DNA of 58,004 bases, counting the filler, from Dirinaria sp. TL-2023a (Eukaryota), in NCBI GenBank assembly GCA_051941275.1. It is 8 parts of 8 records of this genome, joined end to end, with 100 filler letters (N's around TTAATTAATTAA, not from the genome) between each part and the next. Parts side by side here need not be neighbours in the genome. Positions count along the whole stretch, not along the records: positions 43,628 to 50,773 come from JAVEBF010001361.1; 7 more parts are not named here. The stretch is one strand, 5' to 3'. Each line of letters begins with the position of its first letter. Within the stretch, counting starts at the first letter, position 1. The notes under the pieces were generated by a model. It was not told the DNA's origin, did not search any database, and saw only the letters and a list, made by a program, of their open reading frames with translations. Both the position numbers and the translations under genes were made by a program. Of the stretch, positions 7,186 through 50,873 are shown piece by piece.

Positions 7186-7285
7186 NNNNNNNNNNNNNNN
7201 NNNNNNNNNNNNNNNNNNNNNNNNNNNNNTTAATTAATTAANNNNNNNNNNNNNNNNNNNNNNNNNNNNNNNNNNNNNNNNNNNN
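7186..7285. other. Artificial contig linker
   Basis: 44 N + TTAATTAATTAA (stops in all six frames) + 44 N. Confidence 0.99.
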
Positions 7286-14469: not shown

Positions 14470-14569
14470 NNNNNNNNNNNNNNNNNNNNNNNNNNNNNNN
14501 NNNNNNNNNNNNNTTAATTAATTAANNNNNNNNNNNNNNNNNNNNNNNNNNNNNNNNNNNNNNNNNNNN
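14470..14569. other. Artificial contig linker
   Basis: 44N-TTAATTAATTAA-44N. Confidence 0.99.
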
Positions 14570-21742: not shown

Positions 21743-21842
21743 NNNNNNNNNNNNNNNNNNNNNNNNNNNNNNNNNNNNNNNNNNNNTTAATTAATTAANN
21801 NNNNNNNNNNNNNNNNNNNNNNNNNNNNNNNNNNNNNNNNNN
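21743..21842. other. Artificial contig linker
   Basis: 44N-TTAATTAATTAA-44N. Confidence 0.99.
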
Positions 21843-29014: not shown

Positions 29015-29114
29015 NNNNNNNNNNNNNNNNNNNNNNNNNNNNNNNNNNNNNNNNNNNNTTAATTAATTAANNNNNNNNNNNNNNNNNNNNNNNNNNNNNN
29101 NNNNNNNNNNNNNN
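29015..29114. other. Artificial contig linker
   Basis: 44N-TTAATTAATTAA-44N. Confidence 0.99.
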
Positions 29115-36275: not shown

Positions 36276-36375
36276 NNNNNNNNNNNNNNNNNNNNNNNNN
36301 NNNNNNNNNNNNNNNNNNNTTAATTAATTAANNNNNNNNNNNNNNNNNNNNNNNNNNNNNNNNNNNNNNNNNNNN
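36276..36375. other. Artificial contig linker
   Basis: 44N-TTAATTAATTAA-44N. Confidence 0.99.
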
Positions 36376-43527: not shown

Positions 43528-43627
43528 NNNNNNNNNNNNNNNNNNNNNNNNNNNNNNNNNNNNNNNNNNNNTTAATTAATTAANNNNNNNNNNNNNNNNN
43601 NNNNNNNNNNNNNNNNNNNNNNNNNNN
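43528..43627. other. Artificial contig linker
   Basis: 44N-TTAATTAATTAA-44N. Confidence 0.99.
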
Positions 43628-44077
43628 CCCACTAGGGGCCTATGCGAGATCTATGTACTTGTGTCGACGCTGTGCTGACGATGCGTCCACTTCCTCTATA
43701 TTACATGCCGTTTCATCTATCCGTAGTACTAGGAAATCCTCCATGCGAGGACTCTATGGGTCTAAGAATTTGAAGGATCTGAATCTGAAGGACCAGCGAC
43801 TGCCTGAAACTGACTAAGTAGACCAGTGGATAGGATCATTCGTATCGCTGCGGTGGCGCCCGCGGCGCTACCTAGCAGCTTCCTCACGTCTGTGGTATTG
43901 TTCGTCCTTTGTTGCATCTCTAGTCTCTCTTGCCTCCATGTAGGGCACGTTAGTAGCACATGTCTAACTGTCATGCGGCCCTGTCCGCAGTCGCAGGTTC
44001 CTGTAGTCACTCCGGGAACACGTCGCTCGCTCAAGAATTGATTAAAGCCTATTTTGCCCGTCCTCAACTGTGTGAGC
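43628..44077 (-). mobile_element. 3' fragment of a non-LTR (Tad1-like LINE) retrotransposon ORF2, 5'-truncated
   Basis: QLRTGKIGFNQFL...CDCGQGRMTVRHVLLTCP...LL...TGLLSQF is the C-terminal CCHC knuckle region typical of fungal LINE ORF2. It begins abruptly next to AT-rich DNA. Confidence 0.85.
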
Positions 44078-44625
44078 CGCTAATCGTATTACTCATTCTA
44101 TTAATCCTAATTAATGATTCTATATCTTCACATTCCTAAACCAGATATCTTTATAAAAGCAATCACAAATCTATCAAATACGCAATTGAGATAAAATTAA
44201 CGTTCTTTATAAAACAATGCACTTTTATTCAACGATAAATAGAACGGGGCCCATCTGAGGCGATACTCCGAGGTTGACGACCATAGAGAATGGAACGGAA
44301 GCATCTTTGAGGTTATGGTCTAACGGATGGAGCAACACGACGGTTAATGTGATTGATTTGAGCGATGAACTGATTGAGAGCAGGAGTAGCGGTGGAAATG
44401 TGGAAACGCATAGCGTTGGGACAACGTAGAGTCCGCATATCTTCTGGACTATTACCCTTGGCCAAATACGCTGTACCTAATTTCGGCTGCGAGGCGGGTA
44501 GAAAAGAGCTCCTAGCTGTTGACAATCTAGTGATAAGCATTTGAGACGCTGGTTGATCACCATCTATATAGGCCTATACTAGTTTCGTTGCCTCACTTTG
44601 CAAAAAGATTTCATATGCTGCACTT

Positions 44626-46396
44626 CTACTCTCTTTGATTCTTCACCCTTTTCACTCGCGCTGGAAAGCCGTCGCTGGGACGTGCGCTTCCTAACTGGAT
44701 TTGATAGGCTCTTTCTCCATTGACAGCCTTTACCCCTTTCTGTTTTCGTCGGGAAGTGCTATCCCATTCTTTATATGCGTCGAGCACCTCAAATTCACGA
44801 GCCGTAGTGACCAAGACCAGTTTCAGCTCCGTAAGTGCCAATTCCTGACCGATACAGCTCCTGGGCCCAAATTCAAACGGTCGCCAGGCGTTCTTGATCG
44901 GGTAAAGGGGATGGCCTTCAGTGACCGTAAAACGCTCAGGGAGAAATTCCTCAACTCGGGGCCAGAAGAGAGGGTTGTTGTGGAGGCCGTGATGGTTGCT
45001 CCAGACCAGACAGTGCTCGGTGGGGTATTGGCGACCGTCGGTGTCTGTGAGCGAGAAATCAGGCTGACCGGCACGGGGAGACGTGACTACGGGGAAAAGC
45101 CGCAAGGTTTCCCTAATCACAGCGAGCGTATAAGGGAGCTGATTCAACAGCTGTGGTTGAGATAGCAGTACACGCGTTGCTTTGGTAGGATCAGTTCCAA
45201 ATACTAAGTCGTGTTCAGCACGAAGCTTTTTGAGCACAGTCGGGTTGCGAGACAAGAGCAAGTAAAGATAGCAAATAGTAGTCGCCGTCGTGTCATGACC
45301 GCCAAAGATAAAGAGTTTAATTTGGCTCATAGCATGTTCATGGAATACGGGATCAACAGCTTGAACAGGTTTTCCTTCGGGCAAATCCTGAAAGTAGCTT
45401 TTCAAGGCAAGATCAATTATCGTCTTACTAGCCAGCTCTTTAGTGCTAATGCTGGTGGCGTAGCATTCCTGAAGCTTCTTTGAGATATATCGGTTCATTC
45501 TATGAGCGTTATACCATTGATAGAGGGGGCGTAACGGATTCAACTTGTCAAAAAAGTTGAGCTCAGAGCCAAATTGGCACCACCGGATTTGATCGCGTAA
45601 TGCTGCCGTCATATCGTTGTATTTGCGCTGCGCATCAAATCGATCGTCGCTGAGCATAGTTAGTGATGTCACAGAAGTAGAAGACCTTGTTTCAAGATGC
45701 TTACAGTGCAACTCTGCCGATCACGTCTATCGATGCATTGATAGCTGTTTCGTCCAAGAAAAATATATCTCCTTTCTCGGCGTGACCCTCGAGAATGTTT
45801 TTGAAGATCGATAATTCTTCTAGCATACGTGGAACAAGGGTCACCATGTGGTTTGCGCTGAACCCAGGATTAAATATCTTCCGCCAAGTTTTCCACGTCT
45901 GACCTTCCATAGATACCAAATCAAGACCTCCTGTGACCGGACGCATAAATCTGCGGAATCCAGGGTGTTTGGGAAGCAGATTATCGGCCTGACTGAATTG
46001 GGATACGACATTGGGTGACGTAACAACCAGCATTGGCTGAGCCAATGGCCAAGCGTCGAGATAGTAGACGGGCCCTAGGTCAGGATACCGACGTCGTATT
46101 TGATCGGGCAGATAATGAGCGTGGGCATCGCGAGGGAGTTGTAAGACGAGACTAATGAACAAAGGAATGTGACCTAGTAAATGGTGATAAGGAGGCATTG
46201 CCTTCGGTCCTTAGCGTAACGTGCTCGATGTTTAGAAAATCAAGCTTACCAAACCTTGTTTCCTCAAAAGCCTGAAATGTCGACGCACGCTGTATAATCG
46301 TACGAGAAAGAACGCTATACCGATTCCTGTAAATGCTATGATACTCCGAGCTGTTGGACCGGTTCCTTCCCATCTTTTCGTTGCCGAAGCTGACAT
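44626..46396 (-). CDS. Cytochrome P450 (StcS/VerA-like lineage inferred); three exons
   Basis: N-terminal anchor; PPYHHLLGH; FGGHDTT (I-helix); ETLR; PERF; FEFGPRSCIG heme motif. Confidence 0.93.
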
Positions 46397-46958
46397 TGTA
46401 CCGATGGCAGCATGGAAGTATTGTAGTATGTGCAGAGCCAAAGGTATAGCTCCCCTCTATAATGTGAGCTTAGTGTTGATCGGCACTGAAGATTGATCTG
46501 GATTTAGCAAGGCATCACTGACCATCTTTACAGAGGTCAGCTTCTGTATGTTCCCGCTAAATTGTCCGCTAGTGCACAAGAAGTTTAGCACTTGATAAAT
46601 GACTTACCTTAAATGTCTTTGACACACGATATTAGGAAAATTTGGCAAAGCCACCTGGACTTGAAAGAAGCACATAACAAGGGTGAGTAGAGAAGAAAAC
46701 TTCGCATAGAGGAACAATGGGCGTGCAACCAATCTTACTTCGCCTCGCGGACGTTCTGATGGAAATCGCTTCACTTTTTCAGCCGGACGATGAGGCGACC
46801 AGGCAACCGGGCCTAGCTGAAATGGTTGGTCAGCGCACTCTTGTGTGCACTGGTGATGTCAATCTGGTGGCTTTCGGGTGTCCATTCAATGGCGTTCCTG
46901 CAGCATTTTCTAGCGCTTGGCGCGTTGACTCGGCGATCATCGCTCGATGATACGCCAT

Positions 46959-47091
46959 TACAGATACCTAGCAGAGCGGTTGGGAACGCGCCTGTGTAGC
47001 GTGATATGATATACGCCGAGCCAGCTGCAAAAAGACCCTTGTATTTATCCTTGAATGCGGCGGGCGCGTACCAGCCGCTGTGCTATCTGTA
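46959..47091. mobile_element. Putative MITE (Tc1/mariner-pogo type ends)
   Basis: Left end TACAGATA[CCTA]GCAGAGCGGTTGGGAACGCGCC versus reverse complement of the right end TACAGATAGCACAGCGGCTGGTACGCGCC; TA at both ends; 133 bp, non-coding. Confidence 0.55.
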
Positions 47092-47353
47092 GAAGTTGCA
47101 TGTTATCACGTTTCAGAGACTGTGGGTGTGCACTATCCCTGCTAACAGAACGTTGCGGCATTTGCGTTTTTGAAAACATGTATAGAAAATGTAACGTAAG
47201 GGGAGAAATCGATTCTGTATATTTCACAACTTTGACTTAGTTACGGATAAGATCTGGAAGTGAAAGGTAAGAAGTGAGCTTGAAATGTCATGATTTATTG
47301 AGATTGGTGACCTAATTGGACTTCGCATGCTGTCTATTTCTTCTATGTATGTA

Positions 47354-48141
47354 GGTTGTTATCTAGGTGTTTACACGACAACCCTTATGAGCGGAGGTCT
47401 ATGCCCCAATTGAGCCTAACGCTGGCCTTGCCGGGTACGGTATACCCTGCCGCACAGAGAACTTTTTGCTCAAAAAACACTATTTTTGAAATAACTCAAC
47501 AACGAAACGTGCAATTGACTTTATTAACGCGTTATTCGACCCGTCTGATTATTGCGCATCGGCCTCTGTGCGATAGTCACGATGGGGAGATCTGATTGGC
47601 CGTCAATGAGGCAAGAGAAGCCTGACATACGCGAGCATGACACAATGCTGCTTGTTAATACGAAAATCATGCAGATCAGAGCAGAGAAAGAAAACGTATC
47701 ACAACCGACTATAAGAGCATGGCTTAACGAGATAGTAGACTATCTGGAACGAGCAAAAGGCCTTACAATGCAGTTAGAAGCAATGAAGGCCATCAATCAA
47801 TTGATCATTAAAGTAGAACGCAGTCACGAAAGAATTGAGAAAAATACAACGATCATACGCAGTCACATAACAGAAATCGCAGCAACATCTGCTGCATTCT
47901 CATCGACGATCCTCATTGCTCTCAGAATCTGAGCAGTAGTGACAGCGAGCGCATCGTCATCGACGTCAAAGTCTTTCATCAACAAAAATATCGAGATTAT
48001 AGTTCGTCTAAACGATAGCAAAGTCAAACAAAAGCTTAGAGATCAGAATGCAGAGCACATTGTGAACAGCGTCAACGAAATCATCGCGAAGACGAATCTC
48101 ACAGCGAAAAGCATCAGAGCAGTTAAGAAATTGCTCAGCGA
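47354..48141 (+). mobile_element. Degenerate LINE 5' region with ORF1 (gag-like), cut off by the mini-LTR element
   Basis: ORF from ~47582 with a coiled-coil-like segment, an in-frame TGA at 47930, then EIIVRLND...IRAVKKLLS, which resembles the fungal LINE ORF1 motif I.AV.KLPSGD. It ends exactly at the LTR at 48142. The 5' boundary is approximate. Confidence 0.65.
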
Positions 48142-48610
48142 TGTCAAAGACCCAACCTTGGTTAGATAGGTTTCCCAATGGTAAAAGTCCCGGCAGCGCC
48201 AAAAGACTAACTAAACCAAGTCAAGGGACTTGGTGCCTATCTTACTACTGAGGTGTTCCAGGGTCGTAACACTACCCGGGGCTCTCTCCGAGCTTCGTCC
48301 CGAAGCTCAGCAAGCTCAGAGCCAATGGATAGGAGGTTCGCCTTAAGTGGAAAGGTTAAGTAGTCGCCCCGAGCTTAGATAAGCTCTCAGCCACAAGTCC
48401 TCGCCGAAACCCGAAAACCCTTCAAGCGTCCGGGCTGGGAGTCGAACTCAGAACCTTGCGACCGGGTTGACTTGGTTTAATGTCAAAGACCCAACCTTGG
48501 TTAGATAGGTTTCTCAATGGTAAAAGTCCCGGCAGCGCCAAAAGACTAACTAAACCAAGTCAAGGGACTTGGTGCCTATCTTACTACTTAGGTGTTCCAG
48601 GGTCGTAACA
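48142..48610 (-). mobile_element. Miniature LTR retroelement (TRIM-like): two 130-bp LTRs and a 209-bp non-coding core
   Basis: Direct repeats 48142-48271 and 48481-48610, bounded by TG...CA, with 2 mismatches. On the minus strand a PBS-position 13-mer is complementary to the LTR, and a weak purine tract precedes the second LTR. Confidence 0.8.
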
Positions 48611-50773
48611 GATCGTGGCGAGCGGAGTCTCAGAAATGAAATATGGCGAGAAGGATATTTACTTTAGGGACATACACCTCTTTCTTATCAGGGTCAAAGA
48701 GATGGTCGTTATCAGAGAAGCACAAAAGGTGAGAGATAATCTGTGATTGAGCTTAGCCGGCACATCGCAGAAATGGTACACAGGAGAGCTATCGGACAAT
48801 GAGCGTAGAATGATTAGAATGATCATGCCCGAAGCAATCGACGAGTTGGCGGAATGATCGAGCCTCTTGCTCGAACAGTTTCGAGCTTCTCACAATGTTG
48901 CTCTACAAAGTGTTCTTCGCGAGCGATACACCGTCCGCGATGTCGTCAATCGTAGAGAGTCAAGAGAATACGCTCAGAAGATATTGAGGGGTGTCAGAGA
49001 TGCCAAAATGAACGTTCTCAATCAGCTTGATATCATCTACAATGGTATAGACATGAAAGTTCGACTCGAGGATCTGAGGATGCCTTTCGAGAGCACAACG
49101 GTGAACGGATTTCTCAAACAGATGAAGAAATTCAAGCATGATTGATGAGTCAAAGAAGCTAAGATTATGCGTGATACTGCTCAAGATCAAGACAGTCACA
49201 CTGAACAAGACAGACAGTCTGATGACAATCGATCACTCTACGGTCAGTATAATATCAGTAACCGTCAAAATCAGTTTCAGTTCAGCTATTCACAGTCAAG
49301 GCAGCAATACTATTCACAGTCTTTTCGAGCGAACCCGTAAGAAGTGATCAATACTACGATGAACACTTCTTCTCAGCGGTTGCAAATTATCGCTGAACCG
49401 ACGCCAAACCCAGATCAAGTAAACGCCGCAGAGTCGAATTCGAATTATCAGAAACCTTATACAGCATCAAGCGTCATCGATTTCAATAACCCACGATACC
49501 CTCTCTATCTCACTACTGACAATAGAGATGGATTCAGTTACTATGATAACAATAATCGTGAGGGATATCAAAACAGCAATCGTAGTGGATATGAATATCA
49601 GAATAACAATCGTGGCGGATACGATTATCAGAACAATCGCGACGGATATCAGTATGATAATAATCGTCCTAGTTATCAAGGCGGTCAGAGAGATCCTCAA
49701 AACCAAAATCGATTTCAAGAGCAAAAGGCATATAATGTCACTGTTTTGGACGATATTGAAGAACTCATTACAGAGAAACATCCGATCAATAATGAGGAAC
49801 AAGAAGAATATCATGACGAGAAAGAAGAGAACTTGAAGTCAGAGAGAGAAACGAACGATGAGTTTTCTCAATACAGTGACGAATGATACAACGACGAAGA
49901 TGTCAATTTCATCATCTCTGATAACGATCAAAATATTCATCGTTGCGAAAAGTGCGATGACATTTTTTCATTCAAAAATCAGTTGTTTAAGCATTTGCGA
50001 CAACAATGTTGAAAGGATTCGATTTCATCATCAACGAATTCATCGTCACTCTCGATAGTAGAAACAGTGATCAACTCAGTTGAGCTTTCGACTCTTATCA
50101 AATCATCGTCAAGAGTGAACAACTCATCGAAGCAATCTTCTGAGCATGCGTTTAGGGATTGACATTATGCCATCACTAAGATTGATTTCGATAGCAACGA
50201 TAATTTTGAGAATGAAATCTGTTTGAATTCAGAATGCCCGATTACTACTGACGATAAGCAATTTATACTTTCTAAGCTATCAAATGCGAAGATCCACACC
50301 ATGTCGACCTCATTACCAATTAGAGAGGTAGGCAACAAGGTGATCAAATCAATCGAATACGTCATCGTTTCAGCCTACTTTAAGGGTAAGTGTAACGATA
50401 AATCGACTATCGCGGAAATCAATATGAAGATACATCTTATAAACGAGCTCAAGACAAAGCTACTCGTTGACGTCGATATTATTGCTTCGAAAGATATCAT
50501 CTTGACGTTTTCGAAGAATCGTCTTATCATAATCTCGTGTGAGAACTTTGAGATCATTATGAAATTCAAGACACGACTAAACTCGAACACGCGACGCATT
50601 ATTCGTGCGAAGAAAACATTCACTGTCGTCTCAGATCAAATGATGAACGTTTCAGTGATTTATCACGAGACGTTATCAGACGATCGTGATTTTCTTTTCG
50701 AGTCACAGTGCTCGATCGACATGAGTCTGAACGATGAAGTACATGCTCATGTGATTGATTCGACGTTACATAT
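48611..50773 (+). mobile_element. Mutated Ty3/gypsy-type gag-protease relic
   Basis: KDIYFRDIHLF..VRDNL..KWYTGELS..ERYT..RE(S)REY..NQL..YNG gag; C2H2-like HRCEKCDDIFSFKNQLFKHL; degenerate aspartic protease CLNSEC (from CLDSGC); many TGA stops at Trp positions; runs into the gap. Confidence 0.8.
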
Positions 50774-50873
50774 NNNNNNNNNNNNNNNNNNNNNNNNNNN
50801 NNNNNNNNNNNNNNNNNTTAATTAATTAANNNNNNNNNNNNNNNNNNNNNNNNNNNNNNNNNNNNNNNNNNNN
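50774..50873. other. Artificial contig linker
   Basis: 44N-TTAATTAATTAA-44N. Confidence 0.99.

Follow-up and report, generated by a model that had tools for sequence, protein, structure and literature searches.

The window, by which we mean the whole analysed stretch of 58,004 nt, is interrupted by blocks of N at 7186-7285, 14470-14569, 21743-21842, 29015-29114, 36276-36375, 43528-43627 and 50774-50873, each of which consists of TTAATTAATTAA placed between 44 N on either side and has the look of a six-frame-stop spacer. The pieces between these blocks become shorter from one to the next (7184, 7173, 7172, 7161, 7152 and 7146 nt), and the window as a whole looks like a series of separate, size-ordered contigs of a fragmented draft joined by spacers. 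On this reading, genes separated by a spacer are not adjacent in the genome, and the neighbourhood of the element described here is confined to positions 43628-50773. The open reading frames of the window match PhoD, GH72, IDO, P450, FAD synthase and further families, and the atlas clusters nearest to the IDO frame belong mostly to Ascomycota; both observations support the fungal host presumed in the first-pass annotation.

Within the piece at 43628-50773, a unit bounded by LTRs (48142-48610) lies between the truncated remains of two unrelated elements, both of which read on the plus strand. To its left, the 5' part of a gag-like CCHC ORF1 (47585-48141) is cut at the LTR edge, while to its right the gag-protease region of a chromodomain Ty3/gypsy element (48611-50773) is 5'-truncated at the LTR and, at its other side, cut by the end of the contig. 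Further upstream, the minus strand at 43762-44079 carries an open frame of 105 aa with a cysteine/histidine pattern which is not matched by any Pfam family and which we take to resemble that at the C terminus of ORF2 proteins from non-LTR retrotransposons.

The unit comprises 469 bp, namely an LTR of 130 bp, a core of 209 bp and a second LTR of 130 bp. Repeat detection returned direct repeats at 48141-48271 and 48480-48610 (131 nt, 98%), within which direct reading delimits TG..CA units of 130 nt each at 48142-48271 and 48481-48610. These differ at two positions (C at 48175 versus T at 48514; G at 48250 versus T at 48589), corresponding to an identity of 98.5%, so that the two 130-bp repeats with two mismatches noted at first inspection are confirmed by both approaches. 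In element sense, which is that of the minus strand (see below), 48481-48610 is the 5' LTR, whose minus strand starts with TGTTAC and ends with TTTGACA, 48142-48271 is the 3' LTR, and 48272-48480 is the internal domain. The latter is indeed non-coding as had been proposed, since the only ATG-initiated open reading frames of the unit, of 36 and 42 aa, both lie within the LTRs. All of the hairpins previously recognised are present as well. In the 5' LTR, ACCAAGTC-CCTT-GACTTGGT (48554-48573, minus strand) contributes its 3' arm to the primer proposed below and has a twin, ACCAAGTC-n4-GACTTGGT, in the 3' LTR (48215-48234, minus strand); within the core, a hairpin of 8 bp with a 3-nt loop is found at 48290-48308 and one of 7 bp with a 2-nt loop at 48371-48386. 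No further copy of the LTR or of the core occurs elsewhere in the window. A tandem duplication of a 339-bp unit was considered as the origin of the arrangement and rejected, as the LTR also stands alone with other flanks. By eye, the minus strand of the core at 48424-48455 resembles a tRNA T-arm and 3' acceptor strand followed by TTTT, a likeness supported by neither ARAGORN nor Rfam.

Directly after the 5' LTR, the minus strand shows a spacer of a single nucleotide by direct reading (48480), followed by TAAACCAAGTCAA at 48467-48479, the candidate primer-binding site (PBS). Read on the plus strand this site is TTGACTTGGTTTA, the 100% complement of the TAAACCAAGTCAA found at 48212-48224 and 48551-48563. 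Hence, the claim that a 13-nt exact complement of an LTR-internal segment lies 1 nt past the LTR on the minus strand proves correct. The segment in the 5' LTR (48551-48563, minus strand), which reads TTGACTTGGTTTA in element sense and occupies LTR positions 48-60, is the proposed self-primer and is taken as the start of R; 48212-48224 (minus strand) is the same segment in the 3' LTR. To judge this complementarity we shuffled the core and counted exact complements starting no more than 5 nt from the LTR edge. A complement of at least 13 nt arose in none of 20,000 shuffles, the longest one, seen in two shuffles, amounting to 12 nt. The presence of a 13-nt complement at the position of a PBS is thus not due to chance.

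At the opposite end of the core, the 20 nt preceding the 3' LTR in minus-strand sense contain 13 purines including a run of eight, compared with ten purines and a longest run of three in the 20 nt considered for the opposite orientation. The polypurine-tract-like stretch GGAGAGAGCCCCGGGTAG (48272-48289, minus strand) borders on the 3' LTR; it is interrupted by CCCC and does not adjoin the LTR cleanly. With a PBS-type site bordering the 5' LTR and a run of purines ahead of the 3' LTR, the minus strand is the sense strand of the element.

No TGG directly follows the LTR in either orientation. The PBS is therefore not of the tRNA 3'-end type, and priming by the 3' end of a tRNA is out. An internal segment of a cellular tRNA, as used by Copia and Ty5, could nevertheless serve as primer, in which case the match to the element's own LTR would be a by-product, for instance of a tRNA-derived piece within the LTR. 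There is precedent for such priming insofar as the accessible text of PMC10886601 describes a PBS matching the tRNA anticodon loop for most fungal Helenus TRIMs and for some Copia families, and excerpts of PMC5445492 describe the use of an internal tRNA region by FunCo1 Copia elements. For the present element, however, not one of 35 windows of the primer strand passed an anticodon stem-loop test (5-7-5 stem-loop with at least four of five pairs formed, U as the second and a purine as the sixth loop nucleotide), ARAGORN predicted no tRNA gene, and Rfam returned no tRNA-like match at E values up to 1 or up to 10. Moreover, an exact 13-nt partner within the element's own LTR needs no extra assumption. 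We thus regard a primer taken from the interior of a tRNA as improbable. An Rfam match to mir-551 (E = 3.1, 14.8 bits compared with a gathering score of 51) was rejected as a chance hit.

To learn whether the unit belongs to a repeat family, public sequencing runs were searched with the 469 bp and the contigs obtained were aligned to positions 47600-49200 (1601 nt). The share of query words in the best runs amounted to 0.17, 0.15, 0.15 and 0.05, no run reaching half; run matches carry no claim as to habitat or strain, and stretches of the 1601 nt which are not covered by any contig were not counted as absence. Contigs of four runs originating from four studies (referred to as X1 to X4) contain the LTR in the context of other flanks. 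In X1, a unitig of 130 nt corresponds to 48481-48610 from end to end with two differences, two different left flanks enter the start of the LTR (at 48141 and 48142), and one flank leaves it at 48610. A diverged X1 contig covers the end of the LTR and part of the core (48242-48364) with 13 differences and four gaps; its changes within the purine run, at 48283, 48287 and 48289, are all transitions which retain a purine on the sense strand. In X3, the last 69 nt of the LTR are identical to those of the window and lead, from 48610 onwards, into yet another right flank. X4 provides a single contig of 391 nt consisting of 48142-48277, of 81 nt which replace the 56 nt at 48278-48333, and of 48334-48510. 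It thus contains an LTR, a variant of the core and 30 nt from the start of an LTR, and its depth is 7.55 as compared with about 2 for the other pieces from X4. X2, an RNA library which may contain DNA, contributes a contig of 189 nt covering 48365-48553; since assembled contigs cannot show RNA starts, its end at 48553 is not to be read as one.

Taking the window, X1 and X3 together, three left and three right flank contexts are seen, the flanks of the other copies being visible only as single ends in run contigs. The presence of other flanks together with the 130-nt unitig demonstrates that the LTR ends are true element ends and that the LTR is dispersed, while the X4 contig places the core between LTRs under another organism label. 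Accordingly, the suspicion that the unit might be a single copy or a unique internal deletion is dispelled by the contigs of the four runs and by the LTR-core-LTR order in X4. In the two other contigs covering the site, those of X2 and X4, the 13-nt PBS is free of listed differences, and the same holds for its LTR partner at 48212-48224 in X4, the sole other contig which covers that segment whole. The expected conservation of the complementarity among copies is thus borne out as far as the site is covered, although no covariation is seen. As the copies are 95-100% alike, the complementarity is invariant rather than covarying and has no bearing on selection either way.

Two changes, G>A at 48441 and G>T at 48465, are common to the contigs of X2 and X4, which belong to one subfamily distinct from the window copy. 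In a further X4 contig, aligned at 48479-48512, an LTR end is followed by 13 nt and then by the beginning of a diverged LTR, an arrangement which could reflect near back-to-back LTRs, a smaller derivative or nested solo LTRs. Scanning metagenomes for the initial 20 nt of the LTR yielded one locus (L001), the rest of which is unmatched. It was discarded as a chance match, as BLAST reveals just those 20 nt to be shared. Scans of genome contigs (two patterns) and of viral contigs (one pattern) gave no match. Neither the window nor the metagenome, genome-contig and viral-contig scans revealed an autonomous element sharing this LTR or PBS. Short TG..CA LTRs, a short non-coding core, a total length below about 1 kb and an LTR-adjacent PBS, here a 13-nt site of the self-priming type 1 nt off the LTR, are all present, and the assignment of the repeats to a TRIM family is well supported.

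The flanks of the window copy deserve closer consideration. The left-hand frame, which is interrupted by a single in-frame TGA, represents the first approximately 165 residues of a gag-like protein. The homologs of this frame measure 507-529 aa and show CCHC-type cysteine patterns but align only up to 48139-48142; none of them is matched by a Pfam family. Presumably, the frame is ORF1 of a non-LTR retrotransposon. One X1 contig crosses 48141 without any LTR and continues in the same frame with ..LSEDIAIHTINK, as the homologs do. By virtue of this empty site, the edge at 48141|48142 is recognised as that of a true insertion. The 21 nt with which the contig continues occur nowhere in the window, even if up to three mismatches are allowed, and the missing part of the gag-like protein has therefore not simply been moved downstream.

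On the right-hand side, 48612-50771 (plus strand) can be read as one frame of 720 codons including eight stops, seven of which are TGA. Its seven homologs are polyproteins of 1376-2194 aa, among which P0032 gave matches to the families of RT, RNase H, integrase, SH3_Tf2-1 and the chromodomain. In Pfam searches, the flank open reading frames themselves gave nothing below E = 0.04, and neither P0004 nor the read-through translation of the right-hand frame was matched. Judged by its homologs, the right flank is a chromovirus relic. The homology begins at 48609-48636, which corresponds to residues 69-273 in all seven homologs; the residues upstream thereof have no counterpart in the window, and a conserved W-N-x-x-D-x-G/D-F-F-D block present in the upstream part of five homologs (P0030, P0032-P0035) is likewise absent from it. 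Since these residues are missing, the gag of the relic must be truncated at the LTR. At the stop in codon 45 homologs have W (P0030, P0034) or L (P0031), and at that in codon 82 all three aligned homologs (P0030, P0031, P0034) have W. The GC content of the relic is 40% compared with 50% for the TRIM, and five of six differences of an X4 contig over 49121-49166 are G>A. From its sequence, the relic looks as though it had undergone repeat-induced point mutation from which the TRIM was spared.

The element is preceded by AGCGA and followed by GATCG. The target-site duplication of 4-6 bp which had been anticipated is thus absent from the window copy, and with two unrelated flanks this copy cannot display one. 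From the unrelated, truncated flanks and the lack of a duplication it follows that the window copy does not represent one clean insertion event: either two insertions, one in each of the flanking elements, later recombined, or the repeat led the assembly wrongly from one locus into another. The LTR identity of 98.5% can therefore not be used to date a single event, and the view of this copy as one young insertion cannot be upheld. These very features, i.e. flanks stemming from two unrelated elements and no target-site duplication, in a fragmented draft and on a contig which ends inside a repeat, may be taken to suggest that the unit as such is an assembly artefact or a local rearrangement and that the real objects are solo LTRs or the LTRs of a longer element. 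Yet X4, which bears another organism label, contains LTR, core and the start of an LTR within one contig of 391 nt, and the core-LTR and LTR-core junctions recur in X2 and X1, respectively. Because these junctions place the core truly between two LTRs elsewhere, doubt attaches to the pairing of the flanks only, and we consider it very unlikely that the unit itself is spurious. It is scarcely credible that the plus strand is sense, with 48481-48610 representing the 5' LTR of the neighbouring chromovirus and the TRIM a tandem-LTR artefact of the latter: while the gag frame does open on the plus strand directly at the border of the LTR, TGGCGAGCGG beginning 5 nt past the LTR with a TGG that would then provide a tRNA-type PBS and an ATG lying at 48636, the alignable part starts at residue 69-273 in seven of seven homologs, so that gag is truncated at the right-hand LTR, which is hence not its 5' LTR, the same LTR end leads into other sequences in X1 and X3, and in plus orientation the TRIM possesses neither a PBS nor a purine tract.

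We return to self-priming, for which the RNA was folded from its presumed start onwards (109 nt, minus strand 48563 to 48455). The fold-back expected from pairing of LTR and PBS was indeed predicted, the 5' end of the RNA forming a 15-bp duplex with the PBS. The duplex comprises 13 Watson-Crick pairs followed by G.U and U-A, the last two of which run through the spacer and the last base of the LTR. It is present in both the MFE and the centroid structure and persists when all 469 nt are folded; the z score of -2.15 is modest, with eight of 200 shuffles folding equally well.

On this basis, transcription would start within the 5' LTR at or near TTGACTTGGTTTA (48563), TTGACTTGG being the presumed start; the first T of the 13-mer lies 47 nt inside the LTR, with an AT-rich stretch upstream of it. 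This would imply a U3 of about 47 nt and an R plus U5 of about 83 nt. The first 13 nt of the RNA are predicted to fold back onto TAAACCAAGTCAA, 1 nt past the LTR, whereupon, by analogy with Tf1, the RNase H of a helper RT would cut the RNA behind the duplex and the element's own 5' end would then prime minus-strand DNA synthesis. The purine stretch in front of the 3' LTR may prime the plus strand. Gag, protease, RT/RNase H and integrase would have to be supplied in trans, probably by a chromovirus of the Tf1/sushi type. As the plus strand would copy the RNA primer, the PBS would be regenerated from R at each round, and such a renewal would explain the perfect 13-nt match. A U3 of 47 nt, on the other hand, is very short for a pol II promoter and counts against the model. 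The chromovirus relic beside the TRIM demonstrates that this class is present in the genome; any link to the LTR or role as helper is only putative. We infer self-priming as the best-supported mechanism of priming, and consider a TRIM with Tf1-type self-priming which borrows its proteins from a chromovirus to be the best reading of the locus, to which we assign a probability of roughly 0.6. Of the original designation as a young, self-primed fungal TRIM, the TRIM unit, its occurrence in multiple copies, the fungal host and the predicted fold stand, whereas the single young insertion and the target-site duplication do not.

With respect to novelty, fungal TRIMs have already been described (PMC10886601, accessible text) and self-priming is already in print for coding Ty3/gypsy elements. 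A full-text literature search, covering the main-text portions it returned, produced no description of a self-primed TRIM; a family deposited, for instance in Repbase, but undescribed is conceivable. In the portion of a bivalve paper retrieved thereby, self-priming is raised as a possibility and no more. Apparently, self-priming in a miniature element has not been described before. Still, the gain is incremental, since mechanism and element class are both known and it is their combination which was not found in print. A more far-reaching proposal, which we put forward as a speculation with some doubt of our own, is that the family constitutes the first miniature parasite to be described of self-priming (Tf1/sushi-type) chromoviruses, and that it is active, transcribed and common to several organism labels. 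If this were true, a family 95-100% identical would exist across differently labelled organisms and also in a freshwater RNA sample, and a 130-bp LTR would work with a U3 of about 47 nt and with a PBS restored from R at every round.

A PBS of the tRNA type is the feature by which TRIMs are usually recognised. Annotation tools which demand such a PBS will overlook those that prime themselves, and these may be more numerous in fungal genomes than thought. An element of 469 bp in which all cis signals of self-primed reverse transcription are combined would furthermore be a compact substrate with which the minimal RNA required for Tf1-type priming might be defined, and could help to find the chromovirus which supplies the proteins.

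Compared with known systems, the element agrees with TRIMs in its length below 1 kb, its short TG..CA LTRs, its short non-coding core, the presence of a PBS and a PPT-like stretch, and its many dispersed copies. Classical TRIMs, however, have a PBS of the tRNA type, while that of the present element is of the self-priming type; in addition, the window copy is devoid of a target-site duplication. Among fungal TRIMs, the closest comparison is offered by Helenus (TRIMp3; Kojima 2024), whose LTRs contain the tRNA boxes A and B. The accessible text of that study (PMC10886601) describes the PBSs of Helenus and Ajax and states that the Helenus PBS has no complementarity to the LTR. To the extent that Helenus is covered there, both are fungal TRIMs of similar size with a PBS which is not of the tRNA 3'-end type, but the element studied here shows no tRNA-like match and its PBS matches its own LTR. 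In line with this, tRNA- or 5S-derived LTR sequence with pol III boxes was not detected (no ARAGORN gene; no Rfam match at E up to 1), and no ribozyme family, such as the hammerhead ribozyme characteristic of retrozymes, was matched in the LTRs by Rfam.

GalEa Copia elements are characterised by a Conserved Hairpin Site formed by 9-nt motifs, CTGATCAGT or CTAATTAGT, the CHSeq1 motif being located directly after the 5' LTR and pairing with a partner which lies within the internal region, 12-41 nt further downstream (PMC5445492, in excerpts). As far as these excerpts describe them, GalEa elements resemble the present one in being LTR elements of Pezizomycotina which have no tRNA-type PBS and possess structured RNA directly after the 5' LTR (PMC5445492). 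In contrast to GalEa, the sequence after the LTR is TTAAACCAAG.. here and not one of the 9-nt motifs, and the pairing partner lies in the LTR.

The system which corresponds best with respect to the priming site is that of the Tf1/sushi group. In Tf1, the RNA's initial 11 bases anneal to the PBS and RNase H cleaves between bases 11 and 12, as set out in the accessible part of PMC7175516; for Tj1, excerpts of PMC4600332 report the same self-priming as for Tf1. Unlike Tf1/sushi elements, the element described here carries neither gag nor pol, so that it cannot be placed in an RT phylogeny, its LTR measures only 130 bp, which implies a U3 of 47 nt, and both its RNA start and the RNase H cut are proposed by analogy. 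It nevertheless shares with Tf1, Tf2 and Tj1 of the fission yeasts a fungal host and a PBS beside the 5' LTR which is complementary to the element's own LTR, and with Tf1 a predicted fold-back, extending over 13 nt here as compared with 11 nt in Tf1 according to the portion of PMC7175516 available.
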